Assembly (NCBI GenBank): GCA_020630245.1
Contig: JAHDBZ010000001.1
Span: 60,402-95,322, forward strand
Direction of reading: 5' to 3'
Length of the DNA stretch: 34,921 nucleotides
From: Candidatus Altimarinota bacterium
GTDB lineage: Bacteria > Patescibacteriota > Gracilibacteria > UBA4473
The stretch's first letter is position 1, and every line of letters starts with the position of its first letter. Below the pieces are notes generated by a model, which made no database searches, was not told where the DNA came from, and saw only the letters and a list, made by a program, of their open reading frames with translations. Made by a program: the position numbers and the translations under genes. This document shows positions 9,773 through 33,623 of the stretch, piece after piece.

Positions 9773-11179
9773 TTATCTAACGCCTAAATCTTTCTTGAGC
9801 GCATGAATATGCCGAGCGGTAGCACTGTCAGTGCGGGCCAAGTCCTTAACTTTGCGGACTCCGTGCATGATCGTGGTGTGGTTTTTACCACCGAAGGCTT
9901 CGCCGATGCCTTCGAAACTCATTTTGAGGACATCTTTGCACAGTAGCCAGCTGATCTGACGCGGAAAGACGATCTCTTGTTTGCGAGAGGTACCGATGAG
10001 GTCGGTTGCTGGGATCTGAAAGTAATCAGAAATCAGCGTAATGATATCATCTGGGTTGCGAGCCAGGCTGCGGTGTTCACGACCGGTAATGAGGTCTTCG
10101 TTAGGCTGCAGCTGTCGGAATATTTTTCCGACACTCTGGATCGTAGGAGAGACTTGACTGAGCTCGAGCTCAGCGTGAATCATGTTGAGTACGTTTTCGA
10201 CTTCGCGTAGATTCTTTCGAACATTAGTGGCGATGAATTGTTGTACGTCTTCGGGAAGAATAAGGCCCAAAGCTTGAGCCTTGGCTCGGATGATAGCCAT
10301 CTTGGTTTCGTAGCTCGGCATGGTGACGTCTACCACTAGACCCCAACCGAAACGAGAACTAAGACGGTCAGCCATTTTTTCCAGCTGAGCCGGTGGACGG
10401 TCAGCGGAGAAGATCATTTGTTTGTTGAGATCTCTTAGATCGTTAAACGTATTAAAGACTTCGACCTGGGTTTTTTCTTTGCCGGCAAAAAATTGTACGT
10501 CGTCGATTAGTAGTACATCAACCCGGCGGTATTTTTTTCGAAGGGCTTCTGTCTTGCCCTCACGAATGGCTTTGATCGCTTCATTCGTAAATCGTTCAGC
10601 GGTGGTGTAGATGACAACCGCCTCAGGGTTTTGTTGACGGATTGCATTGGCCGTTCCTTGGAGGAGGTGTGTTTTCCCAAGTCCCACGCCGCCATAAAGA
10701 TAGAGAGGGTTGTAGGCTTTAGCTTCTTGACCGGCAGTTTGAGCGACCGCCAGACAAGCGGCGTGTGCCAGTCGATTTTTTTCTCCAACGATGAAGTTGT
10801 CGAGTGTGAACTTGTTTTGCACCAGTCGAGATTCAAGTCCCGAAGCGTGTTTTTCGGTTGGTTGTTTTGGAAGTTTTCGAGGCGCTTTTGGTTTTGCAAA
10901 AGCCGGAGCGATAACGGCTGGTTTGTCAGCCAGCGTTAGATCTACGTTGAAATAGATACGGTCAATCTCTGGTAGAGTTTTTTGTACGTTGTTGAGTAGA
11001 ATGGTCTGATATTTGTTTTCCAACCAGTTTTTATTCATCTCAGTTGGACAGCTAATGAGGACCGCTGATCCAGAGATTTCTTTGAGATGTACTTTTTTAA
11101 ACCAGGTATGAAATTCCATGCGTGAAATCTTCTGAGAAAGATTTTCTAGCACTTGGTTCCAGACTTGGGTTTTGTCCAT
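9773..11179 (-). CDS. dnaA: Chromosomal replication initiator protein DnaA
   Basis: AAA+ Walker A (GGVGLGKTHLL), Walker B (LLIDDVQF) and the C-terminal DNA-binding domain (NHTTIMHGVRKV). ATG at 11179 (MDKTQVWNQV) is preferred over the track's TTG at 11185. Confidence 0.95.
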   Translation of the reverse strand: MDKTQVWNQVLENLSQKISRMEFHTWFKKVHLKEISGSAVLISCPTEMNKNWLENKYQTILLNNVQKTLPEIDRIYFNVDLTLADKPAVIAPAFAKPKAPRKLPKQPTEKHASGLESRLVQNKFTLDNFIVGEKNRLAHAACLAVAQTAGQEAKAYNPLYLYGGVGLGKTHLLQGTANAIRQQNPEAVVIYTTAERFTNEAIKAIREGKTEALRKKYRRVDVLLIDDVQFFAGKEKTQVEVFNTFNDLRDLNKQMIFSADRPPAQLEKMADRLSSRFGWGLVVDVTMPSYETKMAIIRAKAQALGLILPEDVQQFIATNVRKNLREVENVLNMIHAELELSQVSPTIQSVGKIFRQLQPNEDLITGREHRSLARNPDDIITLISDYFQIPATDLIGTSRKQEIVFPRQISWLLCKDVLKMSFEGIGEAFGGKNHTTIMHGVRKVKDLARTDSATARHIHALKKDLGVR

Positions 11180-11229
11180 GATCAATAAATATTTTGAGGG
11201 GGTTTTTTGTTTTTTGTCACATTGAGAAA

Positions 11230-15760: not shown

Positions 15761-16006
15761 ATGTCTAAGAAACCAGTACCCAAGAAACAACAGGCTAAAT
15801 CGCAAAGTCGTTCACGACACAGCAAATATGTAGCCGAACAACGAAAACGTCTTTCACAAGGTGTGCAACTTACGGAATGTACTCACTGTGGAGCCAAGCG
15901 ACGTGTACACTATGCTTGTGAAGCCTGTGGTTACTACCGTGGTCGACAAGTCCTTAATGTAGACAGCTCGACTGGTAGCGGTAAAGTTACCGAGATTTCA
16001 GCCTAA
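15761..16006 (+). CDS. rpmF: 50S ribosomal protein L32 (zinc-ribbon type, extended C-terminus)
   Basis: N-terminus KKPVPKKQQAKSQSRSRHSKY and a CTHCG...CEACG zinc ribbon. Confidence 0.9.
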   Translation: MSKKPVPKKQQAKSQSRSRHSKYVAEQRKRLSQGVQLTECTHCGAKRRVHYACEACGYYRGRQVLNVDSSTGSGKVTEISA

Positions 16007-16021
16007 ACGAAGCGAGAAGTA

Positions 16022-16083
16022 AGTGAGACTTGTCGAGTCTACGAGACATCAGTCGAACTTATCCTGAGCCTGCGAAGGATCTT
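16022..16083 (+). repeat. Intergenic repeat family, copy A (short 62-nt variant)
   Basis: Shares the boxes AGTGAGACT, AGTCGAACTTATCCTGAGC and CGAAGGATCTT with copies at 33527-33608 (+) and 27813-27894 (-). Lies between rpmF and nusB in sense orientation. Confidence 0.85.
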
Positions 16084-16145
16084 ATGTCATAAGTAAGCAG
16101 TGAGAAGTGCTTTAAACCGAAGGCTTCATATTTCATACTTCCACT

Positions 16146-19540: not shown

Positions 19541-19980
19541 GGGGGTGATATGGCCTCGACGGAGTTCTTTGAAAGATCATAACTGGCGTTTCCGGGTTCG
19601 CATGGTGTACCGGTTATCCACTTCCATGTTACTTTTAAGTGCAAACTTTAAAGAATTCGCTCAAAAACGAATCCAAGGTGCTACTCGCTCTCTAGCTAAC
19701 GCTTTTGCAGCTCCAGTACCAGTAATGGCTTAGTTCCGAGCTTCATTAAATCCTAGTTGAGCTTAGGCTCCTAGGTGTCAGTGCACTCTACCGCGGTGTG
19801 CATTGTCTGTTTATGCGGAGTAGTCTAATCACCTCGTCTCAGTGATCGGATGAAGCTTTTGAGACAACTTCCCATTGTATTTGTTGGTTTTGTTGATGGG
19901 TCGTAACTAAATCAACTACAAACGTAGAAGGTTATCGTCTTTGACTTCGGACGCGGGTTCAATTCCCGCCACCTCCACCA
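19541..19980 (+). ncRNA. ssrA: tmRNA (SsrA), about 440 nt
   Basis: The 5' GGGGGTGATATGGCCTCGACGG pairs with the 3' CACCTCCACCA to give a 7-bp acceptor stem with a G3-U wobble. The T-arm is GCGGG-TTCAATT-CCCGC, CCA is encoded, and TTTTTT follows. The tag frame GCA AAC ... GTA ATG GCT TAG ends at 19733. Confidence 0.92.
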
Positions 19981-27515: not shown

Positions 27516-27805
27516 AGCTTCGTTTTAAAATCAATAATCTTGTCATCTATTACCTCAACGCCTTCTTCGGCCAGGCGGCGGATTTTTTCTTCTGGTTTGC
27601 CAGCGTAACCGCCGAGGCGACCATCGGTATTAACCACCCGGTGACAGGGGACGATGTCACGGGGGTACGGGTTTTGGTTCATGGCATTACCGACCGCCCG
27701 ATAAGCCCTGGTACCGAGTGCTTCGGCCAGGGCTTTGTAGGTGGTGACGCGTCCGGTAGGGACTTCACTTAGAAGTTTATAACAGCGTTCGTTAAAATTT
27801 TTCAT
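27503..27805 (-). CDS. ogt: Methylated-DNA-protein-cysteine methyltransferase, single-domain (MGMT/Ogt C-terminal domain)
   Basis: 100 aa with the active-site motif IVPCHRVV (Cys retained, so not an Atl-type) and RAVGNAMNQNP. Confidence 0.85.
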   Translation of the reverse strand: MKNFNERCYKLLSEVPTGRVTTYKALAEALGTRAYRAVGNAMNQNPYPRDIVPCHRVVNTDGRLGGYAGKPEEKIRRLAEEGVEVIDDKIIDFKTKLYRW

Positions 27806-27812
27806 GTTAGAT

Positions 27813-27894
27813 AAGATCCTTCCCTTCGACAGGCTCAGGGCAGGCTGCTCAGGATGAGTTCGACTAACAGCTCACAAGTTCGCTGAGTCTCACT
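27813..27894 (-). repeat. Intergenic repeat family, copy C (82 nt, minus strand)
   Basis: The reverse complement aligns to copy B at about 67/82 positions by hand count. Its AGTGAGACT box overlaps the mscS stop codon, and it ends 8 nt before the ogt ATG. Confidence 0.85.
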
Positions 27895-28762
27895 ACACCT
27901 CGACCTCATACTTTCCCGTTGGATCTTTGGTTTCGTAGTAGTGGTGAATGTCTTGTTGTGGATATGGGATACTGATGCCATTAGCATCGAATTCAGCTTT
28001 GGCCAGTTCAAAGAAATCTGCTGGCAGGCCAACATAGTGCTTGTCTTGACACCAGACTCGGAGATTTAGATCGACAGAACTTTCTCCAAGATTCCCGACA
28101 AAGACTTCTGGCTCGTGTCCTTTTTCTTTAAGGATTTTTTTGTTGTCTTTGGCTAGATTTAAGAGGATGTCTTTGGCTTTCTTGATGTCGTCTTCGTAAC
28201 CAATACCAAAGATGATGTCGTGACGACGCGTGCCAAGGGAAGTGTAGTTTTCGATGGCATCGTTAGAAATAGCACCATTTGGGATGATGATTTTTTTGTG
28301 ATCTGGTGTGTGGAGAACGGTGTTGAAGATTTGGATCTGTTTTACAACCCCGTCGTATCCTTGGGCCAGGATATGGTCACCGACTTTGTACGGCTTGAAA
28401 AGTAGGATCAAGACACCACCGGCAAAATTTGCGAGTGATCCTTGCAGCGCTAAACCAACGGCCAAACCGGCGGCCCCGACTAAGGCTACGAAAGATGAAG
28501 TCTGCACACCAAGCATGCCGGCAACCGCGATAAAGAGCACGATCTTAAGTGTGATGGCAATCAGGCTCTCGAGAAAACCAGCAACCGAAGGATCAAGGTG
28601 CTGTTTTGCAAAAATCTTGTCGAGAATTTTGTTGAGGAGTTTAATAGCCTTGAGTCCAACAAATAAAACAACCAGGGCCAACAGGAGTTTGGGTGCGTAG
28701 CTCGCAACCATTTCGACTCCTAGATCAATGTACTTTTGTACATCTAGATTAGAAAAATCCAT
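27893..28762 (-). CDS. mscS: Small-conductance mechanosensitive channel (MscS family)
   Basis: 289 aa with the pore helix GVQTSSFVALVGAAGLAVGLALQGSLANFAGGVLILLFKPYKVGD. Confidence 0.9.
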   Translation of the reverse strand: MDFSNLDVQKYIDLGVEMVASYAPKLLLALVVLFVGLKAIKLLNKILDKIFAKQHLDPSVAGFLESLIAITLKIVLFIAVAGMLGVQTSSFVALVGAAGLAVGLALQGSLANFAGGVLILLFKPYKVGDHILAQGYDGVVKQIQIFNTVLHTPDHKKIIIPNGAISNDAIENYTSLGTRRHDIIFGIGYEDDIKKAKDILLNLAKDNKKILKEKGHEPEVFVGNLGESSVDLNLRVWCQDKHYVGLPADFFELAKAEFDANGISIPYPQQDIHHYYETKDPTGKYEVEV

Positions 28763-32425: not shown

Positions 32426-33502
32426 ATGCAATGGTTTAAAAATAAATGGTTAAAACTCCGTCATCGCCTCGGCCTAGGAGCTATTGAGTGGGATATGACA
32501 CTTGATAAAGTGTTTGATCGACTCGCGATCATGAAGCAGGAACCAGAACAAAAACAAACCATTTCGATTCGAGTAGTAGAAGACGCCAAGATCGGTTGGC
32601 TCTACTGGATGGAGCTGACACTATCGGTGCTGATTGCGACCTTCGGTTTGCTCCAAAACTCGGTAGCGGTGATCATCGGAGCGATGCTGATCGCCCCGTT
32701 TTTGCGACCGATTCAGGGAGTGGCCTTTGCGATCGCCAATGGCCGACGGAAGCTCCTCTGGAACACGCTACAGACACTGACGATTAGTACGTTGTACTCG
32801 ATTTTTTTGGCTTGGTTAGTGCTCGGACTGGTGCCCTACGCGGAGGTGACACCAGAGATACTGAGTCGAACGGCTCCCAACACTTTTGACCTTTTCATCG
32901 CGATCTTCTCGGCGATGGTAGCGAGTCTCGCTCATGCCTATCAACGATTATATGAAAGTGTGGCTGGGGTGGCGATGGCGACCGCAATTGTCCCGCCGCT
33001 GGCGGTGATCGGGATCATGATTTTCTTTGGAGACTTTACGTTGGCGTGGGGTAGTTTTGTGCTCTACCTAACTAACCTCGTGGCGATTCTCTTGATCGGA
33101 GTAGTGATGTTTATCTTCTATGGCTTTAACCCGCACAAACAAGAATCAGAGTCCTCTCTCAAACGAATTGGGATTTTGTTTTTAGTTACGTTTGTGTTGT
33201 GGTTTGTGCTGAGTTCTGGTCTGCAAAAGATCGAAGAAAATCGTACCTTGCAAAAGAGTACGTATCAAACGCTGCTGCAGACTTTGGACAAAGATCTTCC
33301 AGGAGCTAAGGTCAAAGACTTCGAAATCATTGAGACCAAGGAAGGTCACACCATCAATGGACAACTGTTTGTCGATGATCAAACGCGGATCACGCATGGG
33401 AAGCTTAAGGACATCAAATCTGGACTCTCTGAAAAACTCGGTCGAGACTTTGAGCTCGAGCTCGATATCGTGCGGACGGTGAGTATCGAAGGAGAAGAGT
33501 AA
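32426..33502 (+). CDS. DUF389 family (TIGR00341-like) integral membrane protein
   Basis: 358 aa. LIATFGLLQNSVAVIIGAMLIAPFLRPI and repeated hydrophobic helices are typical of DUF389. Confidence 0.55.
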   Translation: MQWFKNKWLKLRHRLGLGAIEWDMTLDKVFDRLAIMKQEPEQKQTISIRVVEDAKIGWLYWMELTLSVLIATFGLLQNSVAVIIGAMLIAPFLRPIQGVAFAIANGRRKLLWNTLQTLTISTLYSIFLAWLVLGLVPYAEVTPEILSRTAPNTFDLFIAIFSAMVASLAHAYQRLYESVAGVAMATAIVPPLAVIGIMIFFGDFTLAWGSFVLYLTNLVAILLIGVVMFIFYGFNPHKQESESSLKRIGILFLVTFVLWFVLSSGLQKIEENRTLQKSTYQTLLQTLDKDLPGAKVKDFEIIETKEGHTINGQLFVDDQTRITHGKLKDIKSGLSEKLGRDFELELDIVRTVSIEGEE

Positions 33503-33526
33503 GTATGAAGAGAGAAGTGTGAAGTA

Positions 33527-33608
33527 AGTGAGACTCAGCGAGTTTGCGAGTTGTTAGTCGAACTTATCCTGAGCAAACGATCTTGAGTTTGTCGAAGCGA
33601 AGGATCTT
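33527..33608 (+). repeat. Intergenic repeat family, copy B (82 nt)
   Basis: AGTGAGACTCAGCGAGTTTGCGAGTTGTTAGTCGAACTTATCCTGAGCAAACGATCTTGAGTTTGTCGAAGCGAAGGATCTT. It is preceded by NNNGAAG heptamers at 33504-33524, downstream of the DUF389 stop. Confidence 0.85.
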
Positions 33609-33623
33609 CAAAAAGACCTTAAC

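Follow-up and report, generated by a model that had tools for sequence, protein, structure and literature searches.

Does the short repeat that occurs three times between genes in this DNA act in its host, or is it a mobile sequence that spreads for its own sake? The window, namely, the whole stretch of 34,921 nucleotides analyzed, corresponds to C41:60402-95322 of a source genome of 1.008 Mb in 50 contigs. The earlier note regarded the repeat as a three-copy family with a function at the RNA level, such as a 3'-UTR element, rather than a randomly inserted MITE. The orientation of the copies, the covariation, and the strand-specific fold described below support a function at the RNA level, whereas a burst of copies in one relative (G053) revealed that the family also has a mobile side.

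Copies in the window and extent of the family

The three copies (A, B, and C) are real, occupy the positions and strands reported previously, and contain the sequence boxes quoted for them. Each is co-oriented with the gene upstream, which Pfam identified as L32 (rpmF) for A, DUF389 for B, and MscS for C. The genes downstream are nusB, an unknown 120-aa ORF, and an MGMT-type gene with a DNA-binding domain, respectively.

Copy A is a short form at 16017..16084 (+) and consists of AA and model positions 1-67 (model start, 16019; 79 bits with the covariance model). The TAA stop of rpmF (16004..16006, +) ends 13 nt before model position 1, and the heptamer-like filler GAAGCGA GAAGTAA lies between them (16007-16018). 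Hairpin 1 (16020..16061, +) reads UAAGU-GA-GACU-UGUC-GAG-loop-CGAG-ACA-UC-AGUC-GA-ACUUA and contains two tandem G.A motifs. Hairpin 2 (16061..16080, +) reads AUCCU-GA-G-loop-C-GA-AGGAU, and its initial A has an alternative partner in the U of UAA. Copy B is a long form at 33522..33609 (+; model span 33524-33609; 80.6 bits), 3' of the DUF389 gene. The TAA stop of this gene (33500..33502, +) ends 22 nt before model position 1 and is followed by approximately three heptamer-like units (33503-33524, +) and then by the AAG-UAA of the element itself. Hairpin 1 spans 33525..33566 (+), and hairpin 2 (33566..33605, +) has a loop with an extra inner helix, CAAAC/GUUUG.

Copy C, also a long form, is located between mscS and the MGMT-type gene (27812..27897, -; 73.9 bits). 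In this copy, the stop lies within the element: the TAG of mscS (27893..27895, -) forms part of the 5' strand of hairpin 1 (27855..27895, -) at model positions 3-5. Hairpin 2 (27816..27855, -) contains its own 5' half duplicated in nested form (CCUGAGC twice). This insert recurs in the copies at C45:10032 and C33:8462 of the source genome, which shows copy-and-paste spread. The ATG of the MGMT-type gene (27803..27805, -) is 6 nt past the element. GGAAGGA (27817-27823, -), on the 3' strand of hairpin 2 and 11 nt upstream of this ATG, is the only Shine-Dalgarno-like candidate for the gene and would be sequestered in the hairpin. Copies B and C, for which a hand count had given approximately 67 matches over 82 positions, match at 68/82 in a gapless alignment. 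With BLAST in the source genome, the E-values were 2e-10 or better.

The family is considerably larger than the three copies initially described. BLAST, iterated nhmmer, and an Infernal covariance model identified 17-19 copies in the source genome, all intergenic. The three copies in the window are young paralogues. Contig C12 is bounded by copies, one at C12:98-165 (+) and one full plus two partial tandem copies at C12:9768-9942 (-). Since this contig begins and ends in copies, the assembly probably breaks at the repeat, and the copy number is likely underestimated.

A second covariance model detected approximately 100 copies across the order: 23 of its 43 genomes and 14 of its 25 genera have the element, and the number per genome ranges from 0 to 25. 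Copy numbers are uneven within genera (25, 1, and 0 in one; 8, 2, 1, 0, and 0 in another), and some genomes retain one intact copy only. The first covariance model matched 12 of 25 genomes of the same family, each a separate genus, and none of the 16 other families of the class. Among 401 sampled genomes of the class, the extra matches were single copies in four genomes of one other family (f22), in which hairpin 1 is conserved and hairpin 2 is different. The single f22 copies L115 and L116 place hairpin 1 on the stop of small proteins ending in ...NGFSVRC(I/V)KD, and L115 has a second, partial hairpin-1-like unit immediately downstream.

A strict sequence pattern, which recovers 26 of the 101 known copies, was scanned on one genome per species across 185,579 species. 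It found 23 stretches, only in MAGs labelled Candidatus Peribacteria, Gracilibacteria, or Altimarinota, several of which are genomes of the order already counted. No match was obtained at E<=0.01 in 241 kb of unrelated metagenome DNA used as a control. In the whole window, Rfam 15 at the gathering threshold matched only tmRNA (19541-19980, +; RF00023, 113.7 bits) and no family for the element; at E<=1, eight copies yielded one chance-level match, which was in flanking DNA. A literature search found no account of Peregrinibacteria/Peribacteria repeats or of the motif of the element. We conclude that this is an uncatalogued family of two-hairpin elements of approximately 65-85 bases that is restricted to one lineage, the Peribacteria of the candidate phyla radiation.

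RNA fold and stop-codon register

The unit comprises two hairpins that directly adjoin each other. In hairpin 1, three short helices form a rod that is broken up by two nearly invariant tandem G.A/A.G motifs and a YU bulge. P1 (UAAGU/ACUUA) is followed by a symmetric GA/GA loop, P2 (4 bp), and the YU bulge on the 3' side; beyond the bulge are P3 (4 bp), a second GA/GA loop, one closing pair, and a loop of 4-6 nt. Hairpin 2 has a conserved foot (AUCC.../...GGAU), which is followed by CU, and a variable top, where the long forms (B and C) carry their inserts.

The alignments were examined for covariation, as the earlier note had proposed, and it was extensive. Among 12 copies of the source genome, pairing is intact in 96.4% of cells, and both sides have changed in 10 of 19 pairs. 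In all 101 copies, in an alignment that was fitted to the covariance model, 96.0% of cells pair, versus 28-43% with slid partners, and 18 of 19 pairs have changed on both sides. When 18 diverse copies were aligned independently with MAFFT, RNAalifold recovered the same fold, with compensatory changes in 12 of its 18 pairs. Covariation also links model position 3 to its partner. It was not seen for a helix that would close the element between the upstream AA(G) and the downstream CU(N).

The G.A motifs are nearly invariant while the stems covary. Among 101 copies, the tandem columns are G90 A98 / G94 A99 and G85 A100 / G95 A98, and on the opposite strand they would become C.U mismatches. In 61 of 75 copies, the sense strand folds more stably (p=5e-10; means, -25.3 kcal/mol for sense versus -21.9 kcal/mol for the opposite strand). 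Wobble pairs, counted as a further test of the strand, gave 55 G.U versus 40 A.C, which did not decide between the strands. We infer an RNA-level function of the family from its evolution.

Known G.A-containing structures were also considered. A kink-turn has tandem G.A pairs next to a 3-nt bulge, and a bacterial SECIS is a hairpin just past the in-frame UGA of a selenoprotein gene. The former was rejected because the G.A pairs are in symmetric 2x2 loops and the sole bulge (YU) is four pairs away, with no adjoining 3-nt bulge. The latter was rejected because the host genes are ordinary housekeeping genes and their stop is mostly UAA. When hammerhead, sarcin-ricin, kink-turn, and SECIS readings were compared by eye, core sequences or bulges were missing, and position 5 covaries as a Watson-Crick pair, which also argues against special readings of these motifs.

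The first paired bases of hairpin 1 are the stop codon of the upstream gene, in the consensus AAR-UAA-R-UGA. Model positions 2-4 are UAA in 79% of copies and UGA in 12%, and a second frame stops at positions 6-8. In 21 genomes other than the source genome and G053 (62 copies), the stop was at positions 2-4 in 50 copies, elsewhere inside the element in 4, and 30 nt or less upstream in 3, while 5 had no such co-oriented ORF. The corresponding numbers for 14 copies of the source genome were 7, 2, 3, and 2; approximately half coincide exactly with the stop, and the others lie 12-22 nt further downstream or after a terminator-like hairpin. Across the 22 genomes without G053, the stop was exactly at positions 2-4 in 57 copies, and 69 of 76 copies were located on the stop of a co-oriented gene or no more than 30 nt past it. 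Random insertion followed by selection would be expected to place the stop in the UAA frame about as often as in the UGA frame (positions 6-8), whereas the 21-genome set showed 50 stops in the former and at most 4 in the latter.

The base A is found at positions -2 and -1, counted from model position 1, in 65 and 59 of 75 copies, respectively, and, thus, the last sense codon is usually AAR or AAY. Only 16% of the genes of the source genome have AAN as the last codon. The C-termini have their native length, as in GroEL (...GGMGGMM) and GlmS (...SVTVK). DnaA with the element ends in ...LGVK, and the element-free DnaA of the source genome ends in ...LGVR. For annotation, the element explains many Peribacteria proteins that end in Lys or Asn before UAA.

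Host genes, transcript ends, and proposed function

The upstream genes encode EF-Tu, GroEL, GAPDH, DnaA, HU, IF-2, GlmS, YchF, a ClpB-type protein, topoisomerase I, L32, L33, S18, MscL, MscS, and KhpB/Jag, and are largely core and strongly expressed genes. The element is present at orthologous ends of dnaA in five genomes of four genera, three of which have a rare UGA...UCA variant in common, and at those of tuf (four genera), gap (three genera), and glmS, hup, jag, mscL, and rpmG (two genera each). Among 135 differing stem pairs in orthologous copies, 88 were double compensatory changes, 22 were one-sided and still paired, and 25 were broken. The same gene ends, compensatory changes, and lone intact copies are hard to explain without selection on the structure at its resident locus. 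Orthologous occupancy could partly reflect repeated targeted insertion rather than descent. In the source genome, dnaA (window 9773-11185, -) and tuf (C36:14231-15442) are without the element, unlike their orthologues in other genera; dnaA is followed by heptamer-like repeats instead, and tuf by four TTAACAG-type heptamers and a canonical terminator.

The downstream gene is convergent in 30 of 60 stop-anchored copies versus 22% expected from the gene ends of the source genome (p=2e-6), and in the remaining 30 the next start codon is mostly distant. Convergent neighbors and distant starts indicate that the element marks the ends of transcription units. Its distance to the next gene is 6-850 nt.

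This position raises the possibility of an unusual transcription terminator, in which hairpin 2, or both hairpins together, ends transcription of the upstream gene. The element always follows a gene and is overrepresented where genes converge, most genera have a G+C-rich hairpin 2, and 21 of 75 copies have at least 5 T in the 8 nt past hairpin 2. In addition, copies A, B, and C have no other terminator-like site downstream. However, the other 54 copies do not have such a T-rich tail, and a separate canonical hairpin-plus-T-run terminator occurs within 90 nt downstream of 24 of the 76 copies outside G053 (upstream of 3), including those of hup and rpmG in the source genome and of tuf and gap in several genera. 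The source genome has ordinary terminators of this type, e.g., behind tuf and rpmG. Some copies are 7-35 nt before a co-oriented start codon, which leaves no space for a promoter. Since a separate terminator follows about a third of the copies, most have no T-rich tail, and some are close to the next start, we regard the element as 3'-UTR or intercistronic RNA and consider a role as a terminator to be very improbable.

We consider it an even call that the copies are lineage-restricted, transcribed, cis-acting RNA structures that make up the initial portion of the 3' UTR of the upstream gene, provide a stable, insulated mRNA end and occasionally spread by copy-and-paste; the element probably acts on the 3' end of the messenger. 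A fold that extends from the stop codon onward would give endonucleases no single-stranded entry in the untranslated tail, and the two hairpins may form a double barrier to 3'-to-5' exonucleases. Since the stop codon is inside the protected stem, we propose that trimming cannot make stop-less messages. The element may also supply a uniform termination context. Hairpin 1 would be melted by each terminating ribosome and then refold. The net result would be a stable and insulated mRNA end for strongly expressed or unit-final genes, while copy-and-paste spread would account for the moderate expansion in the source genome and the burst in G053.

Some features fit this proposal less readily. A generic nuclease barrier needs neither invariant G.A motifs nor a conserved junction, which suggest a specific, putative partner. 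A second protective structure seems redundant when a terminator hairpin is present downstream, two copies of the source genome (on C43 and C45) come after a terminator-like hairpin, and the burst in G053 demonstrates that the sequence is able to occur at sites other than stop codons. The first of these points leads to a different explanation, in which hairpin 1, with its G.A motifs and YU bulge, is not a passive barrier but a site bound by a general protein or by the ribosome. Its role may then lie in the termination of translation or in recycling, in regulated decay, or in forming the body of a small RNA derived from the 3' UTR. Sequence motifs that are invariant in covarying stems, the exact stop-codon register with its conserved AAR-UAA-R context, the conservation of hairpin 1 alone in the second family of the class, and the copy behind the gene of the RNA-binding protein KhpB/Jag in two genera are consistent with specific binding. 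However, the binding partner and discrete small transcripts remain putative, and the motif is a symmetric 2x2 G.A loop, not a kink-turn. Moreover, single-copy genomes make a dedicated factor unlikely; therefore, the partner would have to belong to the general machinery. We consider specific recognition, the main alternative, to be unlikely.

It is more speculative, and in our opinion doubtful, that the element is a portable 'stop cassette', an RNA module that holds the stop codon and works with the terminating ribosome. To decode the stop, the ribosome would need to open hairpin 1, after which the G.A rod would form again in its wake. Refolding may set the efficiency of termination or recycling or trigger 3'-end processing, and spread would be tied to the ends of transcription or translation rather than to a classical DNA transposase. 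If true, this would account for the exact codon register, the strictness of the sense orientation, and the bias toward highly expressed genes.

Mobility and comparison with known repeats

Random orientation and copies inside genes, which the earlier note held to be signs of a MITE, were both found in G053. This genome has 25 near-identical copies in random orientation, all of which are preceded by AAAATCCCGCGAAA, often followed by another small hairpin. They are antisense between tandem genes or located between divergent genes, and a weaker subfamily is found within long ORFs. The tuf copy is the only one in this genome with the usual placement on the stop codon. Such bursts are present in G053, partly present in the source genome (the subfamily with the shared insert), and absent in the other 21 genomes.

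The G053 loci (L045-L102; e.g., L054, L061, L066, and L071) are mosaic repeats with AAAATCCCGCGAAA always 5' of the element. AAAATCCCGCGAAA also occurs alone in this genome and, with its complement, forms terminator-like palindromes. A CCCCYTGATAAGGGG hairpin frequently comes next after the element, and tandem arrangements of long and short forms have a spacing of 22 nt. The weaker subfamily (TTCAATGACTTCCCGCGAGG...) inside long predicted ORFs is found on either strand (L096, L097, L099, and L101).

These findings bear on the view that the family is a selfish miniature mobile element, similar to REP, MITE, or PATE sequences, with no host function. The hairpins would then be needed for mobilization only, e.g., as single-stranded DNA for a Y1/HUH transposase, and the stop position would represent harmless or targeted insertion. 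Besides the G053 burst and its copies inside ORFs, this view is in accord with the very uneven copy numbers within genera (0 to 25), the source-genome subfamily marked by a common nested duplication, the tandem partial copies and the copies at both C12 ends, and the presence of Y1-transposase-like genes in the source genome. MIRU provides a precedent for insertion at start codons (PMC12548453, PMC3184786).

In contrast, lone intact copies persist at the same gene ends across genera with compensatory changes, and the unequal use of the two stop frames differs from the approximately equal use expected of random insertion followed by selection. A dependence on Y1 enzymes also finds little agreement with their distribution, with Y1-transposase-like genes in 18 of the 23 genomes with the element and in 13 of the 20 without it. 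The RAYT-like Y1 gene of the source genome (C40:16541-17011; 156 aa) is flanked by ACACCGGGTGTC palindromes and not by the element. These ACACCGGGTGTC(G/C)AT palindromes occur at C40:16523-17067 and singly on C9, C31, C41:34039-34066, C43:9181, and C6, with approximately 13 genome-wide; together with the RAYT-like gene, they constitute a small, separate REP-RAYT-like system.

IS200/IS605-type single-strand transposition is expected to leave a replication-strand bias, with the orientation tied to the lagging-strand template (reportedly, Ton-Hoang et al. 2010). GC skew in the source genome is strong and uniform over tens of kb, and the G-rich strand has 8 copies, the C-rich strand 9. The + strand of the window is uniformly G-rich; it carries A and B, whereas C has the opposite orientation. 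Since there is no replication-strand bias and the copies follow genes, this type of transposition is not favored. We rejected RAYT/IS200-type mobilization because the occurrence of Y1 genes does not follow that of the element, different palindromes flank the RAYT-like gene, and the strand bias is absent.

The absence of terminal inverted repeats and of a clear target duplication, as noted earlier for the window, also applies to the larger family: the 5' end (AAGTAAGTGAG) and the 3' end (AAGGATCT) are not mutual inverted copies, and no common direct repeat was found in the flanks of young copies, although the A-rich flanks in G053 would mask a duplication of 2-3 nt. At mscS, the nearest metagenome relatives have no element, but are only 53% identical and thus too distant to serve as empty sites. 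On this balance, we regard a purely selfish element as rather improbable. As judged from sequence comparisons, it seems well supported that the family is a stop-anchored 3'-UTR element with a selected sense-strand structure that occasionally proliferates.

AAGTNAG/GAAGTNA-type heptamers flank many copies of the source genome and resemble the 5' end of the element (GUAAGUGAG). Such units are located at 33503-33524, 16007-16018, and 16085-16110 of the window, and at C45:10118-10150 and C33:8425-8461. Slippage or recombination in heptamer arrays might move or seed copies, and homology with arrays at stop codons may be one route of spread in the source genome.

The host role of dispersed structured repeats, such as REPs, has been debated for decades. 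The present family is an unusually clean case, combining a small defined unit, strong covariation, a fixed stop register, core-gene conservation, and lineage-specific bursts. The conservation spans genera with very reduced genomes, including those with a single copy, and "selected structure" and "selfish spread" are separable within one family. To our knowledge, the non-coding repertoire of candidate-phyla-radiation bacteria is almost unknown, and the family adds an RNA element to it.

Liang, Rudd and Deutscher (2015) reportedly found that REPs within approximately 15 nt of a stop codon affect translation and trans-translation. REP/BIME sequences are biased toward convergent gene ends and affect mRNA stability (PMC3184786). 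Similar to the element, those of Enterobacteria and Pseudomonas, which are associated with RAYT, are short, structured, dispersed repeats in transcribed 3' or intercistronic regions, with copy numbers that vary between relatives and a bias to convergent ends. However, REPs are single palindromes of approximately 35 nt that occur in both orientations and hundreds of copies and flank a RAYT gene, whereas the element is a two-hairpin unit with G.A motifs on the sense strand only and few copies, is phase-locked to the stop, always sense except in G053, and kept at orthologous loci.

The ends of MIRU overlap the stop and start codons of neighboring genes with codon precision, which was read as harmless insertion (PMC12548453, PMC3184786). 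MIRU resembles the element in being a repeat of 40-100 bp within operons that is co-oriented with the flanking genes. It differs in forming tandem arrays and in carrying a small ORF that couples translation into the downstream start codon; the element is non-coding, begins at the stop of the upstream gene, exhibits RNA-type covariation, and has no fixed relation to the downstream gene (6-850 nt; half convergent).

The TAACTGA heptamers of Beggiatoaceae and cyanobacteria have a locked orientation and can extend over the stop codon of the upstream gene (PMC4679880). At its 5' end, the element likewise has a TAA-N-TGA sequence (UAAGUGA / UAACUGA), with stops in two frames. However, heptamer repeats and cyanobacterial STRR are unstructured tandem 7-mers that are mostly ahead of start codons, whereas the element is structured, occurs as a single unit of 65-85 nt, and follows stop codons. 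Other hairpin-forming dispersed repeats that may be co-transcribed with genes are Rickettsia palindromic elements, ERIC/IRU, and Correia elements, which are MITE-like; copies of the present family lie inside ORFs in G053. Unlike the element, these repeats carry terminal inverted repeats and/or target duplications, and neither their orientation nor their codon phase is fixed. To judge from sequence and placement, REP/BIME and MIRU are the closest described analogues, and the element fails the defining features of both.
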